Part shown: positions 1 to 13,573 of the stretch, one piece after another
How the letters are laid out: each line of letters starts with the position of its first letter
Position numbering within the stretch: the first letter of the stretch is position 1
Assembly (NCBI GenBank): GCA_048887225.1
Contig: JBHLJY010000035.1
Coordinates: 3,423-17,359 of the forward strand
DNA length: 13,937 nucleotides
Direction of reading: 5' to 3'
From: Candidatus Hodarchaeota archaeon
GTDB lineage: Archaea; Asgardarchaeota; Lokiarchaeia; Sigyniarchaeales; SOKP01
Made by a program: the position numbers and the translations under genes
Notes under the pieces: model-generated
Told to the model about the DNA's origin: nothing
Database searches by the model: none
The model's input: the letters and a program-made list of their open reading frames with translations, nothing else

Positions 1-1380
1 AAAGTAGCATTTATGCAATTATCGTCATGTTGGGGGTGCCATCAGAGCCTCGTAAATGCTCACTTAGGATTACTCCCGATTCTGCCAGAATTGGAGATTG
101 TTTATTGGCCAGCTGTTGTTGATTTCAAACACGAATCTTTAGTAGCTCGACCAGACGGCGATATTGTTGTAGGATTTATTGAAGGTGTAGCAAGAACAAA
201 AGATGATACTGAAAATGTTAGGTTGATGAGAAAGAAATGCGCCGTAATTGTTGCAATTGGAGCATGTTCTTGTTATGGTAGTGTCAAGGGATTAGCTAAT
301 CTTTTTGACAAAGATGAGTTAGTCAGAAGAAAATTTATGGAAACAGAGTCAATCACAGATGAAAATCCTAAAGAACCAACTGAACACGTCCCTGGATTTG
401 AAGATTATATTGTAAATGTTAAAGATATTATCGATGTTGATGTATTTATTCCTGGATGTCCTCCAACAACAGATAATATTGTTGCTGCAATTTCATATCT
501 ACTTACGCTTGTTGGAGAAGGACCTGCCTCCCTTAATAAAAACGGTAATATTTGTGAGTCATGTAATTTGTTCAAAGAAGGTTGTTTCTTAGATAAAGAT
601 GAATTATGTTATGGATCAATTACTGCTGCTGGTTGTGATTTAATGTGCCCAAATGATGGCGATATTTGTTACGGATGCTTCAAACCAACAGCGAAACCGG
701 GAGAAAAAGTTACACAATTAAAAAATATTATTGATAATGTAAAATCATTAACACCACAGTTAGGCGCAAGTTTACAGCACTTTCTAGATTTATATTTAGG
801 AGTTTCAAATATAACAAATTTTTACTTCCGTGGCGATTTAATCCAACGATTAGCTTACGAACCAGAAAGTTTTAAGGTTAAAGAAGTTGGAGGAAAATTA
901 GTACTAGATGTCGCGCCTACAGGAAACGCTGTTATGGACGAAATAGTAGGGACTGCTTTATATTTATTAAAGGATGATCCTAATTTCAAATTTAGCTCTA
1001 AGACAGTATGTAGTCATTGCGACAGAGAAGTAGCTGATAAAGTGCCAACAGAATTGAAACGAGATTATGAGGGGCTACCCACAATGGATACTTGCTTTTT
1101 GGAGCAAGGTTATATTTGTCTAGGACCGGTGACGCAAGCTGGGTGTGGAACAATCTGTCCCAATAAAGCAAACGCACCTTGTCTTGGATGCTTTGGTCCG
1201 CCTCTGGGAGTAAAAGACCAAGGTACTAAATTCATTAGTACGCTTGGATCTCTCTGTGCTGATAGAGATCCTGAAGAATTAATGAAATTTATTAAAGATC
1301 CGGCCGGATTATTTAATAGATTTACTTTAGCTGCTAGTACATTGGGCCATAAATATCACGATATAATGGAGGAAGAGTAA
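1..1380 (+). CDS. vhuG: Group 3c (F420-non-reducing) hydrogenase small subunit VhuG/MvhG, 5'-partial, with duplicated C-terminal FeS domain
   Basis: Frame is open from base 1 (KVAFMQLSSCWGC), so the true start is probably upstream. Proximal-cluster motifs CWGC, GACSCYG and PGCPP are present, plus two 8-Cys blocks. Lies directly upstream of the large subunit. Confidence 0.9.
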   Translation, partial: KVAFMQLSSCWGCHQSLVNAHLGLLPILPELEIVYWPAVVDFKHESLVARPDGDIVVGFIEGVARTKDDTENVRLMRKKCAVIVAIGACSCYGSVKGLANLFDKDELVRRKFMETESITDENPKEPTEHVPGFEDYIVNVKDIIDVDVFIPGCPPTTDNIVAAISYLLTLVGEGPASLNKNGNICESCNLFKEGCFLDKDELCYGSITAAGCDLMCPNDGDICYGCFKPTAKPGEKVTQLKNIIDNVKSLTPQLGASLQHFLDLYLGVSNITNFYFRGDLIQRLAYEPESFKVKEVGGKLVLDVAPTGNAVMDEIVGTALYLLKDDPNFKFSSKTVCSHCDREVADKVPTELKRDYEGLPTMDTCFLEQGYICLGPVTQAGCGTICPNKANAPCLGCFGPPLGVKDQGTKFISTLGSLCADRDPEELMKFIKDPAGLFNRFTLAASTLGHKYHDIMEEE

Positions 1381-1382
1381 AA

Positions 1383-2687
1383 ATGGTAAAAGAAATAGAA
1401 GTAGAGCCAGTCACTCGTTTGGAAGGGCATGGTGGATTAAGATTAGTTTTAGGAGACGATGGAAAAGTTCAAAATGTGCAATTTAACATCACTTCTACTA
1501 GATTTTTTGAAAAATTTTTAGAAGGACGTTATTGTGAGCATATTCCAAGAATCACACCAAGAATTTGCGGTATTTGTCCGATTCCTCATCATTTAGCTCC
1601 AACAAAAGCTGTTGAAGATGCGTGGGGAGTGTCGATTCCTGAACCAGCGTTAAAATTACGAAAATTATTAATAAACGCTAAGCAATACTCTTCGCATGCA
1701 TTACATTTCTACGCTTTAGCTGCACCTGATTTTTTATTAGGACCAATGGCAGATCCTGCGCTAAGAAATGTCGTTCATGTAATTACTCAAATGCCAGATG
1801 TAGGTGCAATGGCACTGAAAATGATGGATTTTGGTCAAAAATTATGCGCTGCGATTGGAGGCAAATCAGTTCACCCCATCTCTGCAATTGTTGGGGGAAT
1901 AAAAAAGCCTTTAGATGAGGATATTCGTGATAAATTTCTCAAACAAATTGAAGATCAAGTGGAGTGGACAAAAAAGACAGTTGATATTGGATTAAAAGTT
2001 GTAGAAGATTATTGGGATGTAGTAGCAAATGTTGGTGTTGTTCCTACTTATTATGCTGGAATGACTAAAAATGGGATTCATGACATCTATGAAGGAGACA
2101 TTAGAATCGTATCTCCAACAGGTGAAAAATTCGATTATCCACCTCAGAAATATTTAGATGCCTTAGGTGAACACATTCCAGAACATTCTTACGCGACACA
2201 TATGTATTATAAACCTGCTGGATATCCTGAAGGAATTTATCGTGCCAATACGTTGGCAATGATTAATGCCGCTGATAAGATGGCTACTCCTTTAGCAGAC
2301 GAAGCTCTGAAAGCGATGAGAGCAAAAGTCGGCGAAGTATCACATCATACTTTTGCATATCATTGGGCTCGACTAATAGAATTAGTAGAATCGATTGAAG
2401 TAATTGCGACATTGCTTCAAGATCCTGACATTTTAAATCCTGACTGTAAAACTTTAGATGTTGAGCCCAAAGAAGGCAACGGTATTGGATTAGTTGAAGC
2501 ACCACGTGGCCTGCTATTGTATAATATATGGTCTGACGCAGATGGTATCTGTAAAAAAGCTAACTTATTAGTTGCTACAAATCATAACATCGCTGGAATT
2601 GAAAAAACCTTAATGCATGTTGCGAAGCAAGTCTTTGAAGATAAGGCTTTAGATGGCTTAAAATTACCAGATCCTTGGATAAAATAG
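1383..2687 (+). CDS. vhuA: [NiFe(Se)]-hydrogenase group 3c large subunit VhuA/MvhA, lacking the C-terminal L2 motif
   Basis: TRLEGHG, L1 motif RICGICPIPH and EAPRG are present. Ends ...LKLPDPWIK-TAG with no DPCxxCxxH, as in the split VhuA of Methanococcales. Confidence 0.93.
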   Translation: MVKEIEVEPVTRLEGHGGLRLVLGDDGKVQNVQFNITSTRFFEKFLEGRYCEHIPRITPRICGICPIPHHLAPTKAVEDAWGVSIPEPALKLRKLLINAKQYSSHALHFYALAAPDFLLGPMADPALRNVVHVITQMPDVGAMALKMMDFGQKLCAAIGGKSVHPISAIVGGIKKPLDEDIRDKFLKQIEDQVEWTKKTVDIGLKVVEDYWDVVANVGVVPTYYAGMTKNGIHDIYEGDIRIVSPTGEKFDYPPQKYLDALGEHIPEHSYATHMYYKPAGYPEGIYRANTLAMINAADKMATPLADEALKAMRAKVGEVSHHTFAYHWARLIELVESIEVIATLLQDPDILNPDCKTLDVEPKEGNGIGLVEAPRGLLLYNIWSDADGICKKANLLVATNHNIAGIEKTLMHVAKQVFEDKALDGLKLPDPWIK

Positions 2688-2752: not shown

Positions 2753-3247
2753 ATGGTTGTTGTTGATTACGAATTAAGAAAAAAAATAATGGATGCTCAT
2801 ATTGACGATACATTGAAATATTGTTATCAATGCGCACGTTGTACAGATGTTTGCCCTGTTGCGAAAGTATCTGATCAGCGGTATAATCCCAGACCAATCA
2901 TATTGAATTCATTCTTAGGGCTTAATACATTTATTGGTCAAAAAAATAATTTTAGTATTTGGGGATGTACTGTTTGTGATACTTGTGACGAGGAATGCCC
3001 GCAAAAGATTGAGTTAACAGAAATTTTTACCGTATTAAAAAATATGAGTATTGCTGCAGGAGAAGGTCCTGATTATTACACTACTCAGGCATCAACAATT
3101 TACGATAATGGAAAGGCAATTCCACCGCAACCTGCTGTTGAGAGGAGAAGAGAACAACTGGACCTTCCAAAAATTGAACCCCCAAATGTAAATGAGGTTC
3201 AAAAAATTTTAAATGCAACAAAACTAAATAAAATATTAAATAAGTAA
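2753..3247 (+). CDS. hdrC: Heterodisulfide reductase subunit C
   Basis: CYQCARCTDVCP and CTVCDTCDEECP 2x[4Fe-4S] motifs, YNPR motif, directly upstream of hdrB. Confidence 0.9.
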   Translation: MVVVDYELRKKIMDAHIDDTLKYCYQCARCTDVCPVAKVSDQRYNPRPIILNSFLGLNTFIGQKNNFSIWGCTVCDTCDEECPQKIELTEIFTVLKNMSIAAGEGPDYYTTQASTIYDNGKAIPPQPAVERRREQLDLPKIEPPNVNEVQKILNATKLNKILNK

Positions 3248-3263: not shown

Positions 3264-4151
3264 ATGGCAAAAGCAGAAGAATATAAAATGTTTCAAGGTT
3301 GTGTCATTGGAAACAGAATTCCCTTTATTGAAGCATCTGCGCGAAAAGTATTTGATAAACTGGGAATAAAAACCTCTGAAGCCCCTTTTGCGTGTTGTCC
3401 AGATCCAGTTGGATTTAATTCAACGGATCATTTGAGTTGGATGGCAATGGGGGCCAGAAATCTTACACTCGCAGAAGAGGAAGGAAAAGATATAATTTCC
3501 CTTTGCAATGGATGTTTTCAAACGCTTAAGCTTGTTAATCAAGAATTAAGTCACGATGAACATGAAAAGGAGAAAATAAATGAAATATTAAAAACAGTTG
3601 GGCGAGAATTTAAAGGTAATATAAAAGTAAAACATTTTGTTGAAGTCTTGCACGAAGTTGGAGCAGAAAGAATAAAAGAACATATTACAAACGATCTTTC
3701 TGGCCTAAAAGTAGCTTGTCATACTGGATGCCATTACAATAGACCATCAGAAATAGTTCAAACAGACGATCCAATGAAACCAGTAAAACTTCGAGAAGTA
3801 GTAGAAGCGACAGGAGCAACCCCAGTAGATTATGAGGAAGAAGTACTCTGCTGTGGCACGGGGGTAGGAAATACAGAGGAGGAACCTTCAATGCAGATTT
3901 TAGCAAATAAATTAAATAGCGCAATGAACGCTGGAGCTGAAGCCATCATAGTTAATTGCCCTGCATGTTTCCAACAATTTGACAGTAATCAGAAGAAAGC
4001 AGAAAAAATATCAGGGAATACATATGGGATACCAATATTATATATAACGGAATTATTAGCATTGGCAATGGGAGTTAACCCTGACGACATAGGAATTAAA
4101 TTCCACCGTTCTAGATTAACCGATTTTTTAGAGAAATACAATCTTAAATAA
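3264..4151 (+). CDS. hdrB: Heterodisulfide reductase subunit B
   Basis: Two CCG domains: GC..CCPDP..CNGC and HTGCH..CCGTG..CPAC. Confidence 0.93.
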   Translation: MAKAEEYKMFQGCVIGNRIPFIEASARKVFDKLGIKTSEAPFACCPDPVGFNSTDHLSWMAMGARNLTLAEEEGKDIISLCNGCFQTLKLVNQELSHDEHEKEKINEILKTVGREFKGNIKVKHFVEVLHEVGAERIKEHITNDLSGLKVACHTGCHYNRPSEIVQTDDPMKPVKLREVVEATGATPVDYEEEVLCCGTGVGNTEEEPSMQILANKLNSAMNAGAEAIIVNCPACFQQFDSNQKKAEKISGNTYGIPILYITELLALAMGVNPDDIGIKFHRSRLTDFLEKYNLK

Positions 4152-4190
4152 AATAAAAGAACAAGTATTAGAATTGGAGTTTTTATAAAA

Positions 4191-4340
4191 ATGAGTGATA
4201 TACCAGAAGGAGTAGTAAATGTTTTGGAAATGATAGTTCGATGTTTTGACTGTTGACTATCGTGTGCCGCCCACATCACAGTTGTCGATGAGGATGGCAA
4301 AGAAATTTACTCTCGAAAATTAAATGTTGGCTTAGGATGA
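4191..4340 (+). CDS. vhuU: Selenoprotein VhuU: C-terminal Ni-ligating peptide of a split [NiFeSe] hydrogenase large subunit, 49 aa, UGA at 4254-4256 read as Sec
   Basis: Manual translation: MSDIPEGVVNVLEMIVRCFDC(U)LSCAAHITVVDEDGKEIYSRKLNVGLG*. The TGA falls at the first Cys/Sec position of the L2 motif DxUxxCxxH. GGAG at 4176-4179 upstream, SECIS-like hairpin downstream, and vhuA lacks this segment. Confidence 0.92.
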
Positions 4341-4396
4341 ATGTCCAATAAAAAAAAGCGATTGGATATGACTGCCCTGCGCGGGTAAAACCAACA
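4325..4396 (+). promoter_or_regulatory. Eukaryote-like (Lokiarchaeal-type) SECIS element for vhuU
   Basis: AUGA 4337-4340; 9-bp stem AUGUCCAAU (4341-4349) with AUUGGAUAU (4361-4369), one G-U pair; A-rich loop AAAAAAAAGCG (4350-4360); GA at 4370-4371. The lower helix could form as GGC 4329-4331/GCC 4374-4376 or UGUUGG 4325-4330/CCAACA 4391-4396. Confidence 0.85.
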
Positions 4397-4402
4397 AATA
4401 AC

Positions 4403-4420
4403 TATTTTTATATTTTTAAT
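4403..4420 (+). terminator. Possible archaeal oligo-T terminator of the vhu/hdr operon
   Basis: Two T5 runs just downstream of the SECIS. Weak evidence given the AT-rich background. Confidence 0.3.
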
Positions 4421-5387: not shown

Positions 5388-6719
5388 TCAATTTTGTTTT
5401 TTTATTAATTTGCCAAAAAGGTTAAAACCATCAACTTTATTTATCTTAACCTTGACGAATTTGCCATAATCACCATTATAATCATTAATAAAAATATTCT
5501 TATAAGCAAAATTTCTTCCAAAAGCTTGATGTTTTTTCTCACCTTTGTGGATAACTAAAACCTCACCTTCCCAACCATCCCATTTTTCGTTAATCGTTAA
5601 TAAACTATTTCGAAAAACTCTTGATAATCGAATGGATCTCTCTTTTATTATTCTACTATCTAAGTGCTTCATTTTTTTTGCTTTGGTCCCTGGTCGCCCT
5701 GTAAATTTTGATATATTTAAAATTTCAGGATTTAACCATTTCACGAAATTAACAGTTCTATGAAAATCGTATTCAGTTTCGCCAGGAAAACCGCATATTA
5801 TATCAGTGGAAATAGTAAGATCTGGAAATTTTCTTTTTAATGCCTCAATTTGGTCAATTATCTCGGAGATTAAGTAAGGTCTTTGCATCTTTTTAAGGAT
5901 TTTATTGCTTCCTGATTGTACAGGGATGTGTAAAAATTTATAAACTTTTTCGAGCTTAAAAATAGAAATTAAATCTTCTAGATAATTAATCAGAAAACTT
6001 GGATTTATCATCCCCATTCTTAAAAAGAATTTAAAATCCAAAATATTAATCATTTTTACTAAATCATAGAGCTTAATATTATTGTACTCGTAAATACTGC
6101 AATCTTGCGATGTTAAATAAATCTGTTTAATACCTTGACTCAATTGATGGTTTACATTTTTAAGTATAGTATGAGGATTATAACAGTTTAACTTCCCTCT
6201 TGCGTTTTTTACGCAACAATAAGTACAAGAACCTTGGCATCCTTCAGAAATTGGGACGATTCCAGTAATTTTTCCTGGAGGATAATTAATTAGGAATTCT
6301 GATTTATCAATGGAATTTTCTGTATTGAAAATTAGATTTTTTTTCCCTTCTTTTATTTCTCTAAAGATTTCTGAAATATCATTAACACGATCTAAATCTA
6401 CGATTGCTGAGAAAGTAGGAACAATTTTTTTTACGACATCAATATACTCTGGAGCTATATGTGGTAAACAGCCAGCAATAACAATAAATTTATTAAGATT
6501 TTTACCAAATGTTTCATAAATTTTTTTTAAACGTGCTTTTATTTTGTTTTCTGTTTGTTCTTTTACAGCACATGTGTTAAAGATGATAAATTCTGCTTTT
6601 TCTAAACTCGTTTCAATATAATTAGCTTTTTTTAAAATATTAGATATAATTAGCGAATCTGCTTTATTTGATGTACAGCCGTAAGTTTCAATGTAAAATG
6701 AATTCGCTTCTAATGTCAT
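5388..6719 (-). CDS. mtaB: tRNA t6A37 methylthiotransferase (MiaB-family radical SAM, archaeal/e-MtaB CDKAL1-like)
   Basis: UPF0004 cysteines (YGCTSN, NTCAVK, GCLP), radical SAM motif CQGSCTYC, HIPVQSGS, DIICGFPGET and a C-terminal TRAM-like region. Confidence 0.88.
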   Translation of the reverse strand: MTLEANSFYIETYGCTSNKADSLIISNILKKANYIETSLEKAEFIIFNTCAVKEQTENKIKARLKKIYETFGKNLNKFIVIAGCLPHIAPEYIDVVKKIVPTFSAIVDLDRVNDISEIFREIKEGKKNLIFNTENSIDKSEFLINYPPGKITGIVPISEGCQGSCTYCCVKNARGKLNCYNPHTILKNVNHQLSQGIKQIYLTSQDCSIYEYNNIKLYDLVKMINILDFKFFLRMGMINPSFLINYLEDLISIFKLEKVYKFLHIPVQSGSNKILKKMQRPYLISEIIDQIEALKRKFPDLTISTDIICGFPGETEYDFHRTVNFVKWLNPEILNISKFTGRPGTKAKKMKHLDSRIIKERSIRLSRVFRNSLLTINEKWDGWEGEVLVIHKGEKKHQAFGRNFAYKNIFINDYNGDYGKFVKVKINKVDGFNLFGKLIKKQN

Positions 6720-6837: not shown

Positions 6838-7269
6838 ATGGGAAAAATTAAATTCTCATATTGTGACTATTGTGAAAAAGAAGTTGAGCCCGCCAAAAAA
6901 AAACTTGATTCTATGCAAATAACAATTTGGGTAATTGCTTCTATTTGTACCTTAGGATTTGGGATAATAGGATATCTAATTTATAATGCGTCTTTTAGGA
7001 AAAAACATTATTGTCCTAATTGTGAGTCTAAGCTAAAATTCTCCGAAACTCCCTTTGAAAAACCAAAACCTTTAGAAGAATTAACAACAAAGGAAAGGGT
7101 ACTTGTGAAGACTGGAAAGAAAATAAATGTAAAAGAAGAACCAAAAGAGAAACTTGAAGAAGAAATGGAGGAGAAAGAGGAGGAAAAAATTTTTTGCCCA
7201 TTTTGCGGTGAAGAATTAAGTGAAAAAGTAGCAAGTTGTCCATATTGTAAAGCGGACATTAAATTCTAA
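6838..7269 (+). CDS. LITAF-like zinc-ribbon membrane protein with a C-terminal zinc ribbon
   Basis: CDYC, hydrophobic segment, HYCPNC; Glu/Lys-rich linker; CPFC..CPYC. Confidence 0.65.
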   Translation: MGKIKFSYCDYCEKEVEPAKKKLDSMQITIWVIASICTLGFGIIGYLIYNASFRKKHYCPNCESKLKFSETPFEKPKPLEELTTKERVLVKTGKKINVKEEPKEKLEEEMEEKEEEKIFCPFCGEELSEKVASCPYCKADIKF

Positions 7270-8258: not shown

Positions 8259-9119
8259 TTATCTCCTTATCATCCGAGGATTTTTAAAGAGATCTAATTC
8301 GAATTTTGGAGGTTTAAATTCAGTAGTTCCTGTATTTTTCATTATTTTATAAAATTTTTTAAGTTCCTTATAGATCTCTTTCATAAAAAAGCAAATACAT
8401 CCAAAAAGGATGAGTATCATTATAAAAGTTTTGTCTTTTGCATAATTTTCATTGTATATCTCTATCTCTACATCTTTAGTGACTCTTTGATGGTCAACTC
8501 TTCCAATTACCGTGTCTCCTAAGTGAATATTGTAATCGTTTCCAAAACCAATTGTACCTTTTGCAATAACTAATTGGAGCTGATCTTCTTTTTCTTCTGG
8601 AATTAGAGGGAAACTCCAACGAGTTCTAAACCAACGATGACCACGGACTATACGAGCCATCATTGGGGTACCAGGCAAATGAGTAAAAAATACAGGAGCA
8701 GCATATTTTACCTCAACACTTTGAACTAAAGAATGCGTATAACTTAATTCTATACCTCCTTTAAAATTTCCACCTTTCTGAGCACCCATCTTTTCCTCCA
8801 TTATTGTAAATAGGCGTAATACAAGTCTTTTTTTATCTTCATGGAAGTTTTCCTTGTTGTAAGCGATGATATATTTTTTTTCACCATCAATCTCAACAAG
8901 TCCTTCAATATCAAAGGTCTTGGAAAACCAACGCGTTTTAGCTTGATATTTCATTTGTTGATAAACACCTAATTCTTCAGCGTGTAATCTTGTACGCCAT
9001 AAATTACATCTAATTTTTTTGTAAACAGTATGTTTTGGTTTTTCTTGCTCAATAACTTCCTCCGCTTCAACCTCCTCATCTTTGGGTGGTTTTTTCTTTA
9101 CTGGTTTCTTTTTAGCCAT
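8259..9119 (-). CDS. Hypothetical protein, possible LURP1/Tubby/scramblase-like fold
   Basis: 286-aa ORF with GTGA SD-like motif upstream. Beta-strand-like pattern ends in NDYNI..IGRVD followed by one hydrophobic helix (FIMILILFGCICFF). The fold call is tentative. Confidence 0.6.
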   Translation of the reverse strand: MAKKKPVKKKPPKDEEVEAEEVIEQEKPKHTVYKKIRCNLWRTRLHAEELGVYQQMKYQAKTRWFSKTFDIEGLVEIDGEKKYIIAYNKENFHEDKKRLVLRLFTIMEEKMGAQKGGNFKGGIELSYTHSLVQSVEVKYAAPVFFTHLPGTPMMARIVRGHRWFRTRWSFPLIPEEKEDQLQLVIAKGTIGFGNDYNIHLGDTVIGRVDHQRVTKDVEIEIYNENYAKDKTFIMILILFGCICFFMKEIYKELKKFYKIMKNTGTTEFKPPKFELDLFKNPRMIRR

Positions 9120-9710: not shown

Positions 9711-10208
9711 ATGAGTGTAATTAATTTTGATTTTAGAAACCAAGTTATTAAGCATAATGCTTCTTTAAGTTATTGTTATCAATGTTCAACTTGTTCGGGT
9801 GGTTGTCCTGTTGCTTTAATAACTAATGGCGAGTACAACCCGAGAAAAATTATTGAATTATCAATATTAGGACTTCAAGATAAATTAGTTGAAAAACAAG
9901 AACCAAATTCTTGGTTGTGTTCGACTTGTCAGAAATGTGTTGAATTATGCCCTCAAAAAGTTGAGTTGACGGAAATTTTTACTTTAATTAAAAATAAATG
10001 TTTTGAAACAGGAAAGGTTCCTGAGGCTTTTTTAGCACAAGCTCAAGCTGTTTTAGACAATGGGATTGCGATTCCATATTCTAAGGCAATTTTAACGCGA
10101 AGGGAGAAGTTAGGGCTTCCACCAATAAAAATTGCTCCGATTGCTGAGATAAAATCAATATTAGAAGAGACGCATTTTGATAGTAATCTTTTAAAGGGAG
10201 GAAAATAA
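9711..10208 (+). CDS. hdrC: Heterodisulfide reductase subunit C (second copy)
   Basis: CYQCSTCSGGCP and CSTCQKCVELCP; clearly paralogous to 2753-3247. Confidence 0.9.
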   Translation: MSVINFDFRNQVIKHNASLSYCYQCSTCSGGCPVALITNGEYNPRKIIELSILGLQDKLVEKQEPNSWLCSTCQKCVELCPQKVELTEIFTLIKNKCFETGKVPEAFLAQAQAVLDNGIAIPYSKAILTRREKLGLPPIKIAPIAEIKSILEETHFDSNLLKGGK

Positions 10209-10211
10209 ATT

Positions 10212-11087
10212 ATGGCTTACGATTTGTTTTTAGGTTGCGTAATTCCCGCAAGATTACCTTATTTAGAGGTATCCTCAAGGAAAATATTCGAAAAACTTGG
10301 GATAGAATTGCGTGACGTTAACGGATTTAGTTGTTGCCCTGATCCTACCGGAATTGAGTTAATTGACCATAAAACTTGGTTGGCTTTAGGGGCCAGAAAT
10401 TTGAGTTTATGTAATAAAAATGGAGGGTTAATATCTTTTTGTTCTGGTTGCGTCGAAACCTTAAAAGGAGTAAATTATTACCTAAACAAGGAATCCCATA
10501 TGAAAGAAGAAGTAAATCAAATCTTAAAAAAAGTTGGAAAAACTTATGATGGTAGCGTGGAAGTAAAACACTTTGCTCAAATTTTATATGAATATATAGA
10601 CAAGGTCAAACTTTATGTTGAAAAGCCTTTAAATGGCTTTAAGGTTGCCGTTCATTATGGGTGTCATTATTTAAGACCTTCAGAGATTATAAAATGGGAT
10701 GATCCCTTTGAGCCGGTTACTATAGACGAGATTGTTAAAGCACTTGGAGCCGAGTCAGTAGAATATGATATGAAAATGGAGTGCTGCGGCAATCCCGTAG
10801 ATAAATCTGATAAGGACTTATCTCTCTTAATGATAGATCAGAAATTAAAAGCAATACAAGAAGCGGGAGCAAATTGTGTTGTAGTTGTTTGTCCAGCTTG
10901 TTACCAACAATATGAATTTAATCAACGCGAGCTTAACAAGAGAAATGATTCTAATTATGAATTTCCTATTTTTTATCTCTCCGAGTTAGTTGCTCTAGCA
11001 TTTGGATATAAACCAGAAGTACTTGGATTTAATTTTCACAGAATTAAACCTAATGTGTTATTTGAAAATGTGAACTTTTCATCTTAA
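10212..11087 (+). CDS. hdrB: Heterodisulfide reductase subunit B (second copy)
   Basis: GC..CCPDP..CSGC and HYGCH..CCGNP..CPAC CCG domains. Confidence 0.93.
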   Translation: MAYDLFLGCVIPARLPYLEVSSRKIFEKLGIELRDVNGFSCCPDPTGIELIDHKTWLALGARNLSLCNKNGGLISFCSGCVETLKGVNYYLNKESHMKEEVNQILKKVGKTYDGSVEVKHFAQILYEYIDKVKLYVEKPLNGFKVAVHYGCHYLRPSEIIKWDDPFEPVTIDEIVKALGAESVEYDMKMECCGNPVDKSDKDLSLLMIDQKLKAIQEAGANCVVVVCPACYQQYEFNQRELNKRNDSNYEFPIFYLSELVALAFGYKPEVLGFNFHRIKPNVLFENVNFSS

Positions 11088-11133
11088 TATTTATGATAAA
11101 AAATTACTAAATTATAAAGTGATTTGAAAATTT

Positions 11134-12267
11134 ATGGCAGATGTAAAACCTAAAAAAGCCTTGATTGAGGATATTAAAATTTTTAAGGATTTAGAGGATA
11201 AAATTATAAAAACCGATAAATGCTGTGCTTGTGGCGCCTGTGTAGCTTACTGTTTAAGTCAAGGATTTGATGTCATTAAAATGGAAGGATATACGCCTCA
11301 ATTTATTTCAGACGCCAATGTAGATAATTGTAAAGAATGTGGAGTTTGTTATTACATATGCCCTCAAACTGATCCTTTAATTGATAAAATAACAGATTTA
11401 TATCGTATTAAAGATGAGCTTGGTTATGTTCACGACATCATTGCTGCAAAAACAACAGACGAGAAAATAAAGGAAGTTGGACAAGATGGTGGTTTGGTTA
11501 CAACACTTTTGATGTATCTATTTGATAAAAATAAAATAGATGCCGCAATTGTTTCAGAATATGATAATAATTTCAATCCGATACCAAAAATAGTGTATAA
11601 TAAAGAAGATTTATTAAAATCGTCTGGGACAAGATATTCTATATCCTCAAATATCTTACCTTTAAAAGATTTGTATGATATAGCTGAAGAGATTGTTAAA
11701 AAACAGAAGCAAATTTATGATCTTAATCAAATACGCATGGCTTTTGTAGGAACTCCTTGTCAATGCAGAGCTATTAGAAAAATGCAGCTATTAAACGTTA
11801 GTCCTTCTCATGTTATTAAATACGTGTTTGGCTTATTTTGTATGGAGAATTTTGATTATAATAAATTATTTGAGCTTGTAAAGGCTGAGACCAACGAGGT
11901 TCCTATAAATATAGCAAAGATGAATATCAAAAAGAACTTTTTTATCACGAACAAAGCAAATCAAGTACATGAAGTAGAGCTTAAGAAGTTTGATCCAGCA
12001 GTTAGAAATCATTGCCATGAATGCGACGAATTTACAAGTAGATTTTCGGACTTAAGTTTTGGAGGTTCTGGAGCAGTTCAACAAAATTCAATGATCATTA
12101 TCAGAACAGAAAAAGGTCAGGAATTAATTAAAGATTTAATTATAAACGGCTATATTGAAAAATTTATCCCAAAAACAATGACAATTTCTGAATGGAAAAC
12201 AAAAAAACTCGGTTTACTCAGAAAAATGACATCTAATAAAATTAACAAACAAAAAGAGGATGGATAA
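11134..12267 (+). CDS. F420 hydrogenase/dehydrogenase beta-subunit family protein (FrhB/FpoF-like) with an N-terminal ferredoxin domain
   Basis: N-terminal CCACGACVAYC and CKECGVCYYICP; FrhB motifs GQDGGLVT, GTRYS, VGTPCQ, GLFCMENF and CHEC..DLSFG. Confidence 0.88.
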   Translation: MADVKPKKALIEDIKIFKDLEDKIIKTDKCCACGACVAYCLSQGFDVIKMEGYTPQFISDANVDNCKECGVCYYICPQTDPLIDKITDLYRIKDELGYVHDIIAAKTTDEKIKEVGQDGGLVTTLLMYLFDKNKIDAAIVSEYDNNFNPIPKIVYNKEDLLKSSGTRYSISSNILPLKDLYDIAEEIVKKQKQIYDLNQIRMAFVGTPCQCRAIRKMQLLNVSPSHVIKYVFGLFCMENFDYNKLFELVKAETNEVPINIAKMNIKKNFFITNKANQVHEVELKKFDPAVRNHCHECDEFTSRFSDLSFGGSGAVQQNSMIIIRTEKGQELIKDLIINGYIEKFIPKTMTISEWKTKKLGLLRKMTSNKINKQKEDG

Positions 12268-13573
12268 TTTGGGTAAAAATTCTAAATCTGTTCTTATTAT
12301 CGGAGCAGGGATTGCTGGCATTCAAGCTGCTTTAGATCTTGGAGATATGGGAATTAGCGTTATTTTAATTGAGAAAAATCCTTGTATTGGTGGTAGGATG
12401 GCACAATTAGATAAGACATTTCCCACATTAGATTGCTCAATTTGTATTCTTGCTCCTAAACTTTCAGAATGTTATAGACATCCCAATATAACACTTTATA
12501 CTCTTTCTGAACTACAAAAAGTAGAAGGATCTGCTGGAAATTTTTCAGTAGATATTCTTAAACACGCACGTTATGTTATTGAAAAAGAATGTACAAATTG
12601 CGGTGATTGTGGAAATATTTGTCCAGTAAAAGGAATAACCAATTTTTTTGATGCTGATTTAGTTACTCAATCAGCAGTAAATATCCCATTTCCTTCAGCA
12701 GTTCCTCCCGTTTATAGTATTGATAAATCAAAATGTTTATATTTAAATTATGGGATATGTGGATTATGTTATCAAGCATGTGGTCGGGATGCTATCGATT
12801 TTACTCAAAAAGATGAAATACTTAATATTGATAATATTGGTGCGATAGTTGTTGCAACAGGATTAGATTTAGCAGAAGATATTCATTCATTAAATATCTA
12901 TGGATATGAAAAATATGATAATGTAATTACAGCCATAGAACTTGAAAGACTAATATGTGCTTCAGGACCACAAGAGGGTCATTTATCAAGATTATCGGAT
13001 GGTAAACATCCTAAAAAGATTGCTTTTCTGCAATGTATAGATTCTAGAACTCAGAGAGGGCAGAAATATTGTTCTTCTATTTGTTGTATGTATACTACAA
13101 AAGAAGCAATGATAGCATATGAACATGATAATGAGCTAGAATCTTACATATTTTATATTGATATGAGGGCAGGAGGTAAAGGTTTTCAAAAATTTCTCCG
13201 AAGAGGAGCTGAAGAATATAATATAAAGTATATAAAAAGCAAAATAGCTCAAATTCAAGTTGACGAGAATGATAATCCAATTATTATATATGAAGATATA
13301 AATACCTCAGAAATTAAGCAGTTAAAAGTAGATTTAGTTGTATTAGCAACTTGTATTATTCCTTCACAGGGTTTAGAGAAATTAGCAAAAATATTAGGTG
13401 TTGAGTTAAACGAATACAATTTTGTCAAGACTAACCCTTTTACACCAGTAGAAACGAATGTTGAAGGAATTTTTACCTGTGGATGTGCTCGAGAACCCAT
13501 GGATATTCCACGCTCTGTTGCTGAAGCAAGCGGTGCGGCAGCGCGTGCCGCAGAAATGATAAGAGGAGGTTGA
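12260..13573 (+). CDS. hdrA: Heterodisulfide reductase subunit A-like flavoprotein, short form lacking the N-terminal FeS domain and C-terminal ferredoxin
   Basis: GAGIAG FAD motif, DKTFPTLDCSIC, inserted ferredoxin CTNCGDCGNICP, LQCIDSR..YCSSICC, FYIDMR, GIFTCG..PMDIP. Overlaps the upstream gene by 8 nt. Confidence 0.9.
   Translation: MDNLGKNSKSVLIIGAGIAGIQAALDLGDMGISVILIEKNPCIGGRMAQLDKTFPTLDCSICILAPKLSECYRHPNITLYTLSELQKVEGSAGNFSVDILKHARYVIEKECTNCGDCGNICPVKGITNFFDADLVTQSAVNIPFPSAVPPVYSIDKSKCLYLNYGICGLCYQACGRDAIDFTQKDEILNIDNIGAIVVATGLDLAEDIHSLNIYGYEKYDNVITAIELERLICASGPQEGHLSRLSDGKHPKKIAFLQCIDSRTQRGQKYCSSICCMYTTKEAMIAYEHDNELESYIFYIDMRAGGKGFQKFLRRGAEEYNIKYIKSKIAQIQVDENDNPIIIYEDINTSEIKQLKVDLVVLATCIIPSQGLEKLAKILGVELNEYNFVKTNPFTPVETNVEGIFTCGCAREPMDIPRSVAEASGAAARAAEMIRGG

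Follow-up and report, generated by a model that had tools for sequence, protein, structure and literature searches.

The question raised by this locus is whether a 49-codon ORF interrupted by an in-frame TGA encodes a selenoprotein, and whether that selenoprotein is the metal-binding segment that a hydrogenase large subunit encoded nearby lacks. The ORF lies in a 13,937-nucleotide stretch of archaeal DNA (the window, at its full length), which belongs to a genome assembly of 3.27 Mb in 49 contigs, with about 31% G+C and 98% completeness. Among public genomes, the vhuA loci most similar to this one belong to MAGs titled Promethearchaeota or Promethearchaeia. On the evidence given below, we are highly confident that positions 4191-4340 are a genuine vhuU gene of a Loki-type (Promethearchaeota) Asgard archaeon, with its UGA read as selenocysteine (Sec) under the direction of a lokiSECIS. 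The features of the hydrogenase region are as follows.

13-1380, plus strand: vhuG/mvhG-type hydrogenase small subunit, 455 amino acids (Pfam Oxidored_q6, E 2e-20).
1383-2687, plus strand: vhuA, [NiFe(Se)] hydrogenase large subunit without the C-terminal metal-binding segment, 434 amino acids (Pfam NiFeSe_Hases, PDB).
2753-3247, plus strand: hdrC-like gene for a 4Fe-4S dicluster protein, downstream of vhuA and upstream of vhuU (Pfam Fer4_8 and families related to it).
3264-4151, plus strand: hdrB-like gene, immediately before vhuU; its protein has two CCG domains (Pfam CCG in two stretches, E 2.5e-29).
4191-4340, plus strand: very probable vhuU selenoprotein gene, 49 codons (translation with TGA as U, alignments to MvhA and 9sfi_M, conservation).
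4248-4274, plus strand: L2 motif D-C-U-L-S-C-A-A-H of vhuU.
4254-4256, plus strand: codon 22, a UGA that very probably encodes selenocysteine and aligns with the first Cys of DPCxxCxxH (alignments, conservation).

Reading and translation of the sequence confirmed the ORF as the initial annotation had placed it, running from ATG 4191 through 49 codons to a TGA stop at 4338-4340 on the plus strand, with the in-frame TGA at codon 22 (4254-4256). With TGA translated as U, the product reads ...VRCFDC-U-LSCAAH.... Standard gene callers stop at the UGA and miss the gene, as had been anticipated, and a Pfam search with the VhuU peptide alone returned no match. Residues 5-33 of the peptide could be aligned with residues 425-453 of MvhA (5odc_F, E 1e-4), and in this alignment codon 22 pairs with the first nickel-ligand Cys of the C-terminal MvhA motif DPCLSCATH. 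The peptide also aligned with chain 9sfi_M, which is 27 residues long and named 'F420 non-reducing hydrogenase subunit'; the X residue of this chain (unknown or non-standard) coincides with the vhuU TGA codon. These alignments, which the initial annotation had suggested as a check, support the identification of VhuU as the detached L2 (C-terminal, nickel-binding) segment of a group 3c large subunit of the Mvh/Vhu type.

The counterpart of this segment is the upstream large subunit. VhuA carries the L1 motif RICGICPIPH at nucleotides 1560-1589, which includes Cys62 and Cys65, and a search of its translation (1383-2687) for a C-terminal CxxC..H motif found none. It matched the 418-residue VhuA-type chain 9sfi_g in the PDB from end to end (E 2e-124), and against MvhA (5odc_F) it covered only chain residues 3-416 of 473. 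The claim that VhuA lacks the L2 motif was thus borne out, the protein ending at the equivalent of approximately residue 416 of MvhA, and the alignments of VhuA and of the peptide to MvhA and to the 9sfi chains likewise uphold the split group 3c hydrogenase that had been proposed. If vhuU is overlooked, the hydrogenase encoded here appears defective, with two of the four metal ligands absent. The two genes are not directly adjacent; vhuA is located two genes upstream of vhuU, with hdrC and hdrB intervening.

The small subunit VhuG aligned with MvhG (5odc_E) in two blocks, residues 3-187 with 9-183 and residues 328-442 with 172-292, which leaves an insertion of about 140 amino acids (nucleotides 574-993) relative to MvhG. 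The insertion gave no Pfam or PDB match. It opens with a Cys-rich stretch, C..C....GC...CP....C.GC, and because this resembles the cluster-binding segment at residues ~328-380 the insertion may be an internal duplication with an extra Fe-S site.

An RNA element was recognized at the end of vhuU from its minimum free energy fold and the published description of the lokiSECIS, and it was corroborated by a genome scan and by covariation. Its parts are listed below.

4325-4396, plus strand: lokiSECIS (Asgard type I eSECIS-like element).
4325-4330 and 4391-4396, plus strand: lower stem, UGUUGG (the last vhuU codons) with CCAACA.
4337-4340, plus strand: AUGA core, containing the vhuU UGA stop (4338-4340).
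4341-4349 and 4361-4369, plus strand: upper stem, 9 bp.
4350-4360, plus strand: A-rich loop of 11 nucleotides, AAAAAAAAGCG.
4370-4371, plus strand: GA.
4374-4386, plus strand: small, G+C-rich side hairpin that follows the GA and precedes the 3' strand of the lower stem.

The minimum free energy fold of 4336-4420 showed GAUGA, a 9-bp stem, an 11-nucleotide loop and then GA. The lokiSECIS was described as an AUGA before, and a GA after, a 9-bp stem that closes an 11-nucleotide loop starting with adenines, and the AUGA was found to double as the stop codon in VhuU.1 (Mariotti et al. 2016, PMC4989117); for frhA/vhuU a lower stem [U/C]GG_C[C/U][A/G] was later reported (Huang et al. 2024, PMC11227280). 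When 30 homologous elements were folded with RNAalifold the upper stem was recovered, with compensatory double changes in seven of its eight predicted pairs. Covariation in the lower stem was tabulated with an anchor-based script, since MAFFT mis-registers its 3' strand in distant sequences. Six compensated forms were found, namely the UGUUGG/CCAACA of the window and five replacements among relatives: GUAGGC/GCCUA, CUCGGAA/UUCCGAG, ACUUGGA/UUCAAGU, GUGGGA/UCCCAC and AUCGGA/UCCGAU. In shape, in position at the 3' end of a UGA-containing gene, in the overlap of AUGA and stop codon and in covariation, the element of the window corresponds to the lokiSECIS as defined. A scan of the window with Rfam (E up to 10) matched no SECIS family. 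The side hairpin gives the element three arms; a hairpin in the same position stands behind every lokiSECIS of the genome and is also kept in distant families of the order, and the main texts of PMC4989117 and PMC11227280 make no mention of it.

Conservation of the TGA in related genomes, a further check that had been suggested, was found to be nearly complete. A read-through search of 121 genomes from the same order recovered vhuU in 106, nearly all strong matches having exactly one TGA, and codon 22 was TGA in all 44 distinct 150-nucleotide vhuU sequences from relatives. Codons close to it vary synonymously (five codons for Leu23, six for Ser24, four for Ala27 and two for His28). Across the 44 sequences, the differences downstream of the TGA numbered 13012 at third, 5843 at first and 3951 at second codon positions, and this excess at third positions indicates that the frame is translated beyond the UGA. 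The 21-residue tail that follows His28 is also kept among relatives. A single homologue with Cys in place of Sec was encountered, in relative L077 (DCCLSCSAH); it has no SECIS behind it and is a natural control. A minus-strand ORF at 3989-4300 that overlaps vhuU was considered and rejected, as the substitution pattern by codon position fits the plus frame.

The machinery for Sec synthesis and insertion, whose absence the initial annotation had regarded as fatal to its proposal, was found in this 98%-complete genome.

Contig C4, 44921-46066: SepSecS (PF05889, 397 bits).
Contig C4, 38949-39836: EFSec (TIGR00475, 248.6 bits, cut-off 242).
Contig C2, 204406-205188: SPS (TIGR00476, 180 bits, above cut-off), with one in-frame TGA.
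Contig C7, 95112-95864: PSTK (TIGR03574, full-length, 155.7 bits, below the NCBIfam equivalog cut-off of 290.5).
Contig C4, 44554-44706, plus strand: tRNA-Sec, found by hand near EFSec and SepSecS after removal of introns in silico.

The tRNA-Sec has the 9/4 fold, its acceptor stem being of 9 bp and its T stem of 4 bp. The D stem is 7 bp long with UGGU as its loop, the anticodon stem is 6 bp long with CUUCAAA (anticodon UCA), and the variable arm is long; the discriminator is G (G73). Two introns of 30 nucleotides each interrupt the gene, the first within the D stem and the second within the T loop. Because of these introns it was missed in whole-genome searches with aragorn and with Rfam RF01852: the top RF01852 matches were ordinary Arg, His, Gly and Ser tRNAs, and the unspliced tRNA-Sec scored only 20 bits, below threshold. 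Orthologues in relatives show all four states (neither intron, either one alone, or the two together), and this variety, together with the intron-less orthologues, fixes the exon joins. EFSec lies some 5 kb away and is encoded on the other strand, an arrangement that has been described before (PMC4989117). For the D-stem intron, the portions of the Lokiarchaeota literature covered here report an intron in the T arm only.

The position of vhuU in its operon was compared among relatives. Among the best 80 vhuA loci from named MAGs, vhuU directly follows vhuA in 70, and 64 of these 70 continue with hdrC-hdrB. The order seen in the window, vhuA-hdrC-hdrB-vhuU, was present in six complete and two partial loci of the same 80, in 11 or 12 more loci among the extra vhuU copies (L092 being partial), and in L040; its recurrence points to a recurrent paralogous arrangement and not to a misassembly. 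The hdrC and hdrB genes of the two operon types are only about 50-60% identical, and the minority order places the SECIS at the end of the operon. Whether genes upstream of the SECIS avoid TGA stops more strongly in the order of the window than in that of the majority was also asked; TGA stops were almost absent in both gene orders (1 of 191 versus 0 of 46).

This genome itself holds a second locus, vhuA.2-vhuU.2, on the plus strand at the very end of contig C12 (73031-74518). There vhuU directly follows vhuA and has its own UGA and lokiSECIS, and the VhuA and VhuU proteins are 89% and 90% identical to those of the window. A second locus allows a reading in which the vhuU UGA of the window mostly acts as a stop or is decoded as Cys, for instance when selenium is limiting, and the C12 locus supplies most of the active enzyme. 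Back-up enzymes with Cys, of the Vhc/Frc type, occur in Methanococcus, and the Cys-form vhuU of L077 lends this reading some plausibility. Against it, both copies of this genome have the UGA and the SECIS, no Cys-form vhuU of this genome was found among the strong matches, and the UGA is strictly conserved; we regard this possibility as very unlikely.

In principle an error of sequencing or assembly could have produced the TGA, or vhuU could be a decaying pseudogene, the fragment of a large-subunit gene that was once intact, considering that the locus was read from a single MAG contig and that the ORF is short and has no Pfam match of its own. This explanation is already effectively refuted, because the TGA recurs at this codon in about 100 genomes that were assembled independently and in the second copy of this genome, because purifying selection is evident after the TGA (third-position changes dominate, and Ser24 is written with six codons), and because a covarying SECIS lies behind the gene.

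The whole genome was scanned with the pattern ATGA-9bp-11nt-9bp-GA. Ten elements with A-rich loops were obtained, versus one or two in reversed or locally shuffled controls, and nine of the ten follow immediately after ORFs that contain a UGA: three HdrA-VhuD pairs, SPS, PrxL, an 85-amino-acid CKPU protein, vhuU and two unnamed ORFs (on contigs C14 and C21). For the tenth, at C21:2361, no qualifying ORF was seen in the 2.4 kb examined. The element behind vhuU.2 on C12 has one extra base after AUGA and was for this reason not counted by the fixed pattern. LokiSECIS elements behind small UGA ORFs outside the five classical families were noted at C18:47774, C14:30222 and C21:2361 and 2665 (all plus strand); these extra ORFs comprise the AhpD-like 85-amino-acid CKPU protein, a GGG-U-G-C membrane protein and multi-UGA ORFs (C21). 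Within the window, TGA ends a MiaB/MtaB-like radical SAM gene (5388-6719, minus strand), an HdrA-like gene (12260-13573, plus strand) and vhuU itself, and reading through the TGA stops of the first two gave no plausible extension. The earlier view that recoding is site-specific is therefore sustained, TGA being a stop elsewhere in the window and vhuU having a lokiSECIS on its stop. UGA reassignments are known in some uncultured lineages, yet a changed code here, with UGA standing throughout for an amino acid such as Trp or Gly and the ORF an ordinary small protein, has practically no likelihood left, given the stops just named without sensible read-through, the restriction of in-frame UGAs found by the scan to ORFs with a SECIS behind them, the dedicated tRNA-Sec with UCA anticodon and its EFSec, and the alignment of the vhuU UGA with a metal-ligand Cys. 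Conserved genes with in-frame UGAs at positions other than Cys and lacking a SECIS, which would have favored a changed code, were not seen.

With the UGA taken as a Sec codon, the following course of events is proposed for this uncultured archaeon. The UGA at 4254 would be read as Sec under the influence of the eukaryote-like lokiSECIS, which begins 83 nucleotides downstream on the mRNA. Sec-tRNA(Sec) would be supplied by the tRNA-Sec, PSTK, SepSecS and SPS of the genome and delivered by EFSec. Placed within the SECIS core, the terminal UGA would be too close to the element for recoding and would end translation; stops close to a SECIS element have been argued to remain stops (PMC4989117). VhuA (Cys62 and Cys65) and VhuU (Sec22 and Cys25) would together supply the four ligands of a [NiFeSe] center. 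After metal insertion a HycI-type protease would probably remove the 21 residues behind His28, so that mature VhuU would consist of residues 1-28. This cleavage site is suggested by the general course of hydrogenase maturation, by the conserved 21-residue tail and by a HycI-family protease gene in the genome (C3:61814-62092). The 27-residue chain 9sfi_M terminates one residue past the His that corresponds to His28. The 28-residue peptide would stay bound to VhuA and VhuG, and the assembled hydrogenase module would work with HdrABC and with Sec-containing VhuD proteins encoded elsewhere in the genome.

Selenoproteins of this lineage have been described previously. VhuU is one of five Lokiarchaeota selenoprotein families and, with its eukaryote-like SECIS, serves as a central example in the paper that described them (PMC4989117), and in a catalogue of selenoproteins across more than 400 Asgard genomes the FrhA/MvhA/VhuU family was present in 68% of Sec-using Asgard archaea (PMC11227280). 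The initial annotation was right that Lokiarchaeal selenoproteins are known but did not mention that VhuU itself is among them; vhuU, its lokiSECIS and the overlap of AUGA and stop were published in 2016 and 2024 (PMC4989117, PMC11227280). The gene of the window shares with the published VhuU.1 a peptide of about 50 amino acids, a single Sec and an identical SECIS shape at the gene end with AUGA as stop (PMC4989117), and shares with other Lokiarchaeota vhuU genes the UGG_CCA lower stem (PMC11227280). The Sec machinery and the companion genes are likewise those of the published Loki selenoproteome (HdrA-VhuD pairs sharing one SECIS, SPS and PrxL), and apart from the extra small ORFs the set of this genome is that selenoproteome. 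Differences from it are the gene order, which in the Loki majority is vhuA-vhuU-hdrC-hdrB, and the tRNA-Sec, for which the portions of the literature covered describe a T-loop intron, whereas a D-stem intron is present here in addition. Three local variants, namely the permuted order of the genes, the Cys that adjoins Sec and the doubly interrupted tRNA-Sec, are small additions within a known system. For annotation vhuU is of modest importance, and the gene should be included in metabolic reconstructions of Asgard MAGs.

More distant systems were compared in the same manner. The VhuA and VhuU chains of the Methanococcales (9sfi_g and 9sfi_M) are split at the same place, have Sec at the first ligand position and share the ...SCAAH ending; the identity with 9sfi_M is modest (E about 0.002-0.01), and that chain has D-P-U where D-C-U is found here. 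The Methanococcales SECIS is of the euryarchaeal GAA_A type and lies in the 3' UTR, in contrast to the kink-turn AUGA..GA type of the window (PMC4989117, PMC11227280). MvhA of the MvhAGD-HdrABC complex from Methanothermococcus thermolithotrophicus (5ODC) is also of group 3c and has comparable partners, namely an MvhG-like small subunit and HdrB/HdrC, but it is one polypeptide with Cys (DPCLSCATH), while two pieces with Sec are encoded here.

The initial annotation had cited the motif DPUxxCxxH. Sec at the first ligand position and the CxxH were found as expected; D-P-U itself was not, since the peptide departs from the canonical D-P-U/C-x-x-C-x-x-H in reading D-C-U. All ligand residues are present, and D-C-U is a variant of the motif in this lineage and not a missing ligand. 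Residue 21 of VhuU was Cys in 45 of 50 relatives, Pro in two and Phe in three. Residue 18, canonically Ala, is also usually Cys, which gives the pattern C-x-x-C-U-x-x-C (4242-4265 in the window) in nearly all sequences of the family; the Cys-form homologue reads DCC. The main texts of PMC4989117 and PMC11227280 make no mention of a Cys adjoining the Sec of VhuU. With a near-universal Pro replaced by Cys, Loki-type VhuU would differ from all characterized [NiFeSe] and [NiFe] large subunits, and Cys21 could form with Sec22 a reversible selenenylsulfide that protects or gates the active site. A parallel is the Cys-Sec selenenylsulfide at the GCUG end of thioredoxin reductase. If such a bond forms, it could afford protection, for example against oxygen or before nickel insertion. 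The side hairpin and the permuted operon might in addition give the SECIS a role in expression at the level of the operon. This combined reading is speculative and unlikely to be correct.

Several features of the rest of the window were also noted. A downstream cluster on the plus strand (9711-13573) encodes an hdrC-like protein, an hdrB-like protein, an FrhB/FdhB-like protein of 377 amino acids and an HdrA-like flavoprotein of 437 amino acids, the gene for the last having no in-frame UGA, a TGA stop and a 4-nucleotide overlap with the next ORF. The cluster may be an Hdr-like module free of Sec, separate from the HdrA-VhuD pairs elsewhere in the genome, all three of which contain Sec. A weak match to a C/D-box snoRNA (SNORD12, E 0.6, its 23.6 bits falling far short of the family cut-off) at 8853-8900 on the plus strand lies antisense to an ORF at 8259-9119 and is probably due to chance. 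Finally, the gene at 6838-7269 on the plus strand encodes a protein of 143 amino acids with a LITAF-like zinc ribbon (PF10601, E 4e-10) and a second zinc ribbon; because the LITAF domain is mostly known from eukaryotes, the protein may count as a eukaryote-signature protein of this Asgard archaeon.
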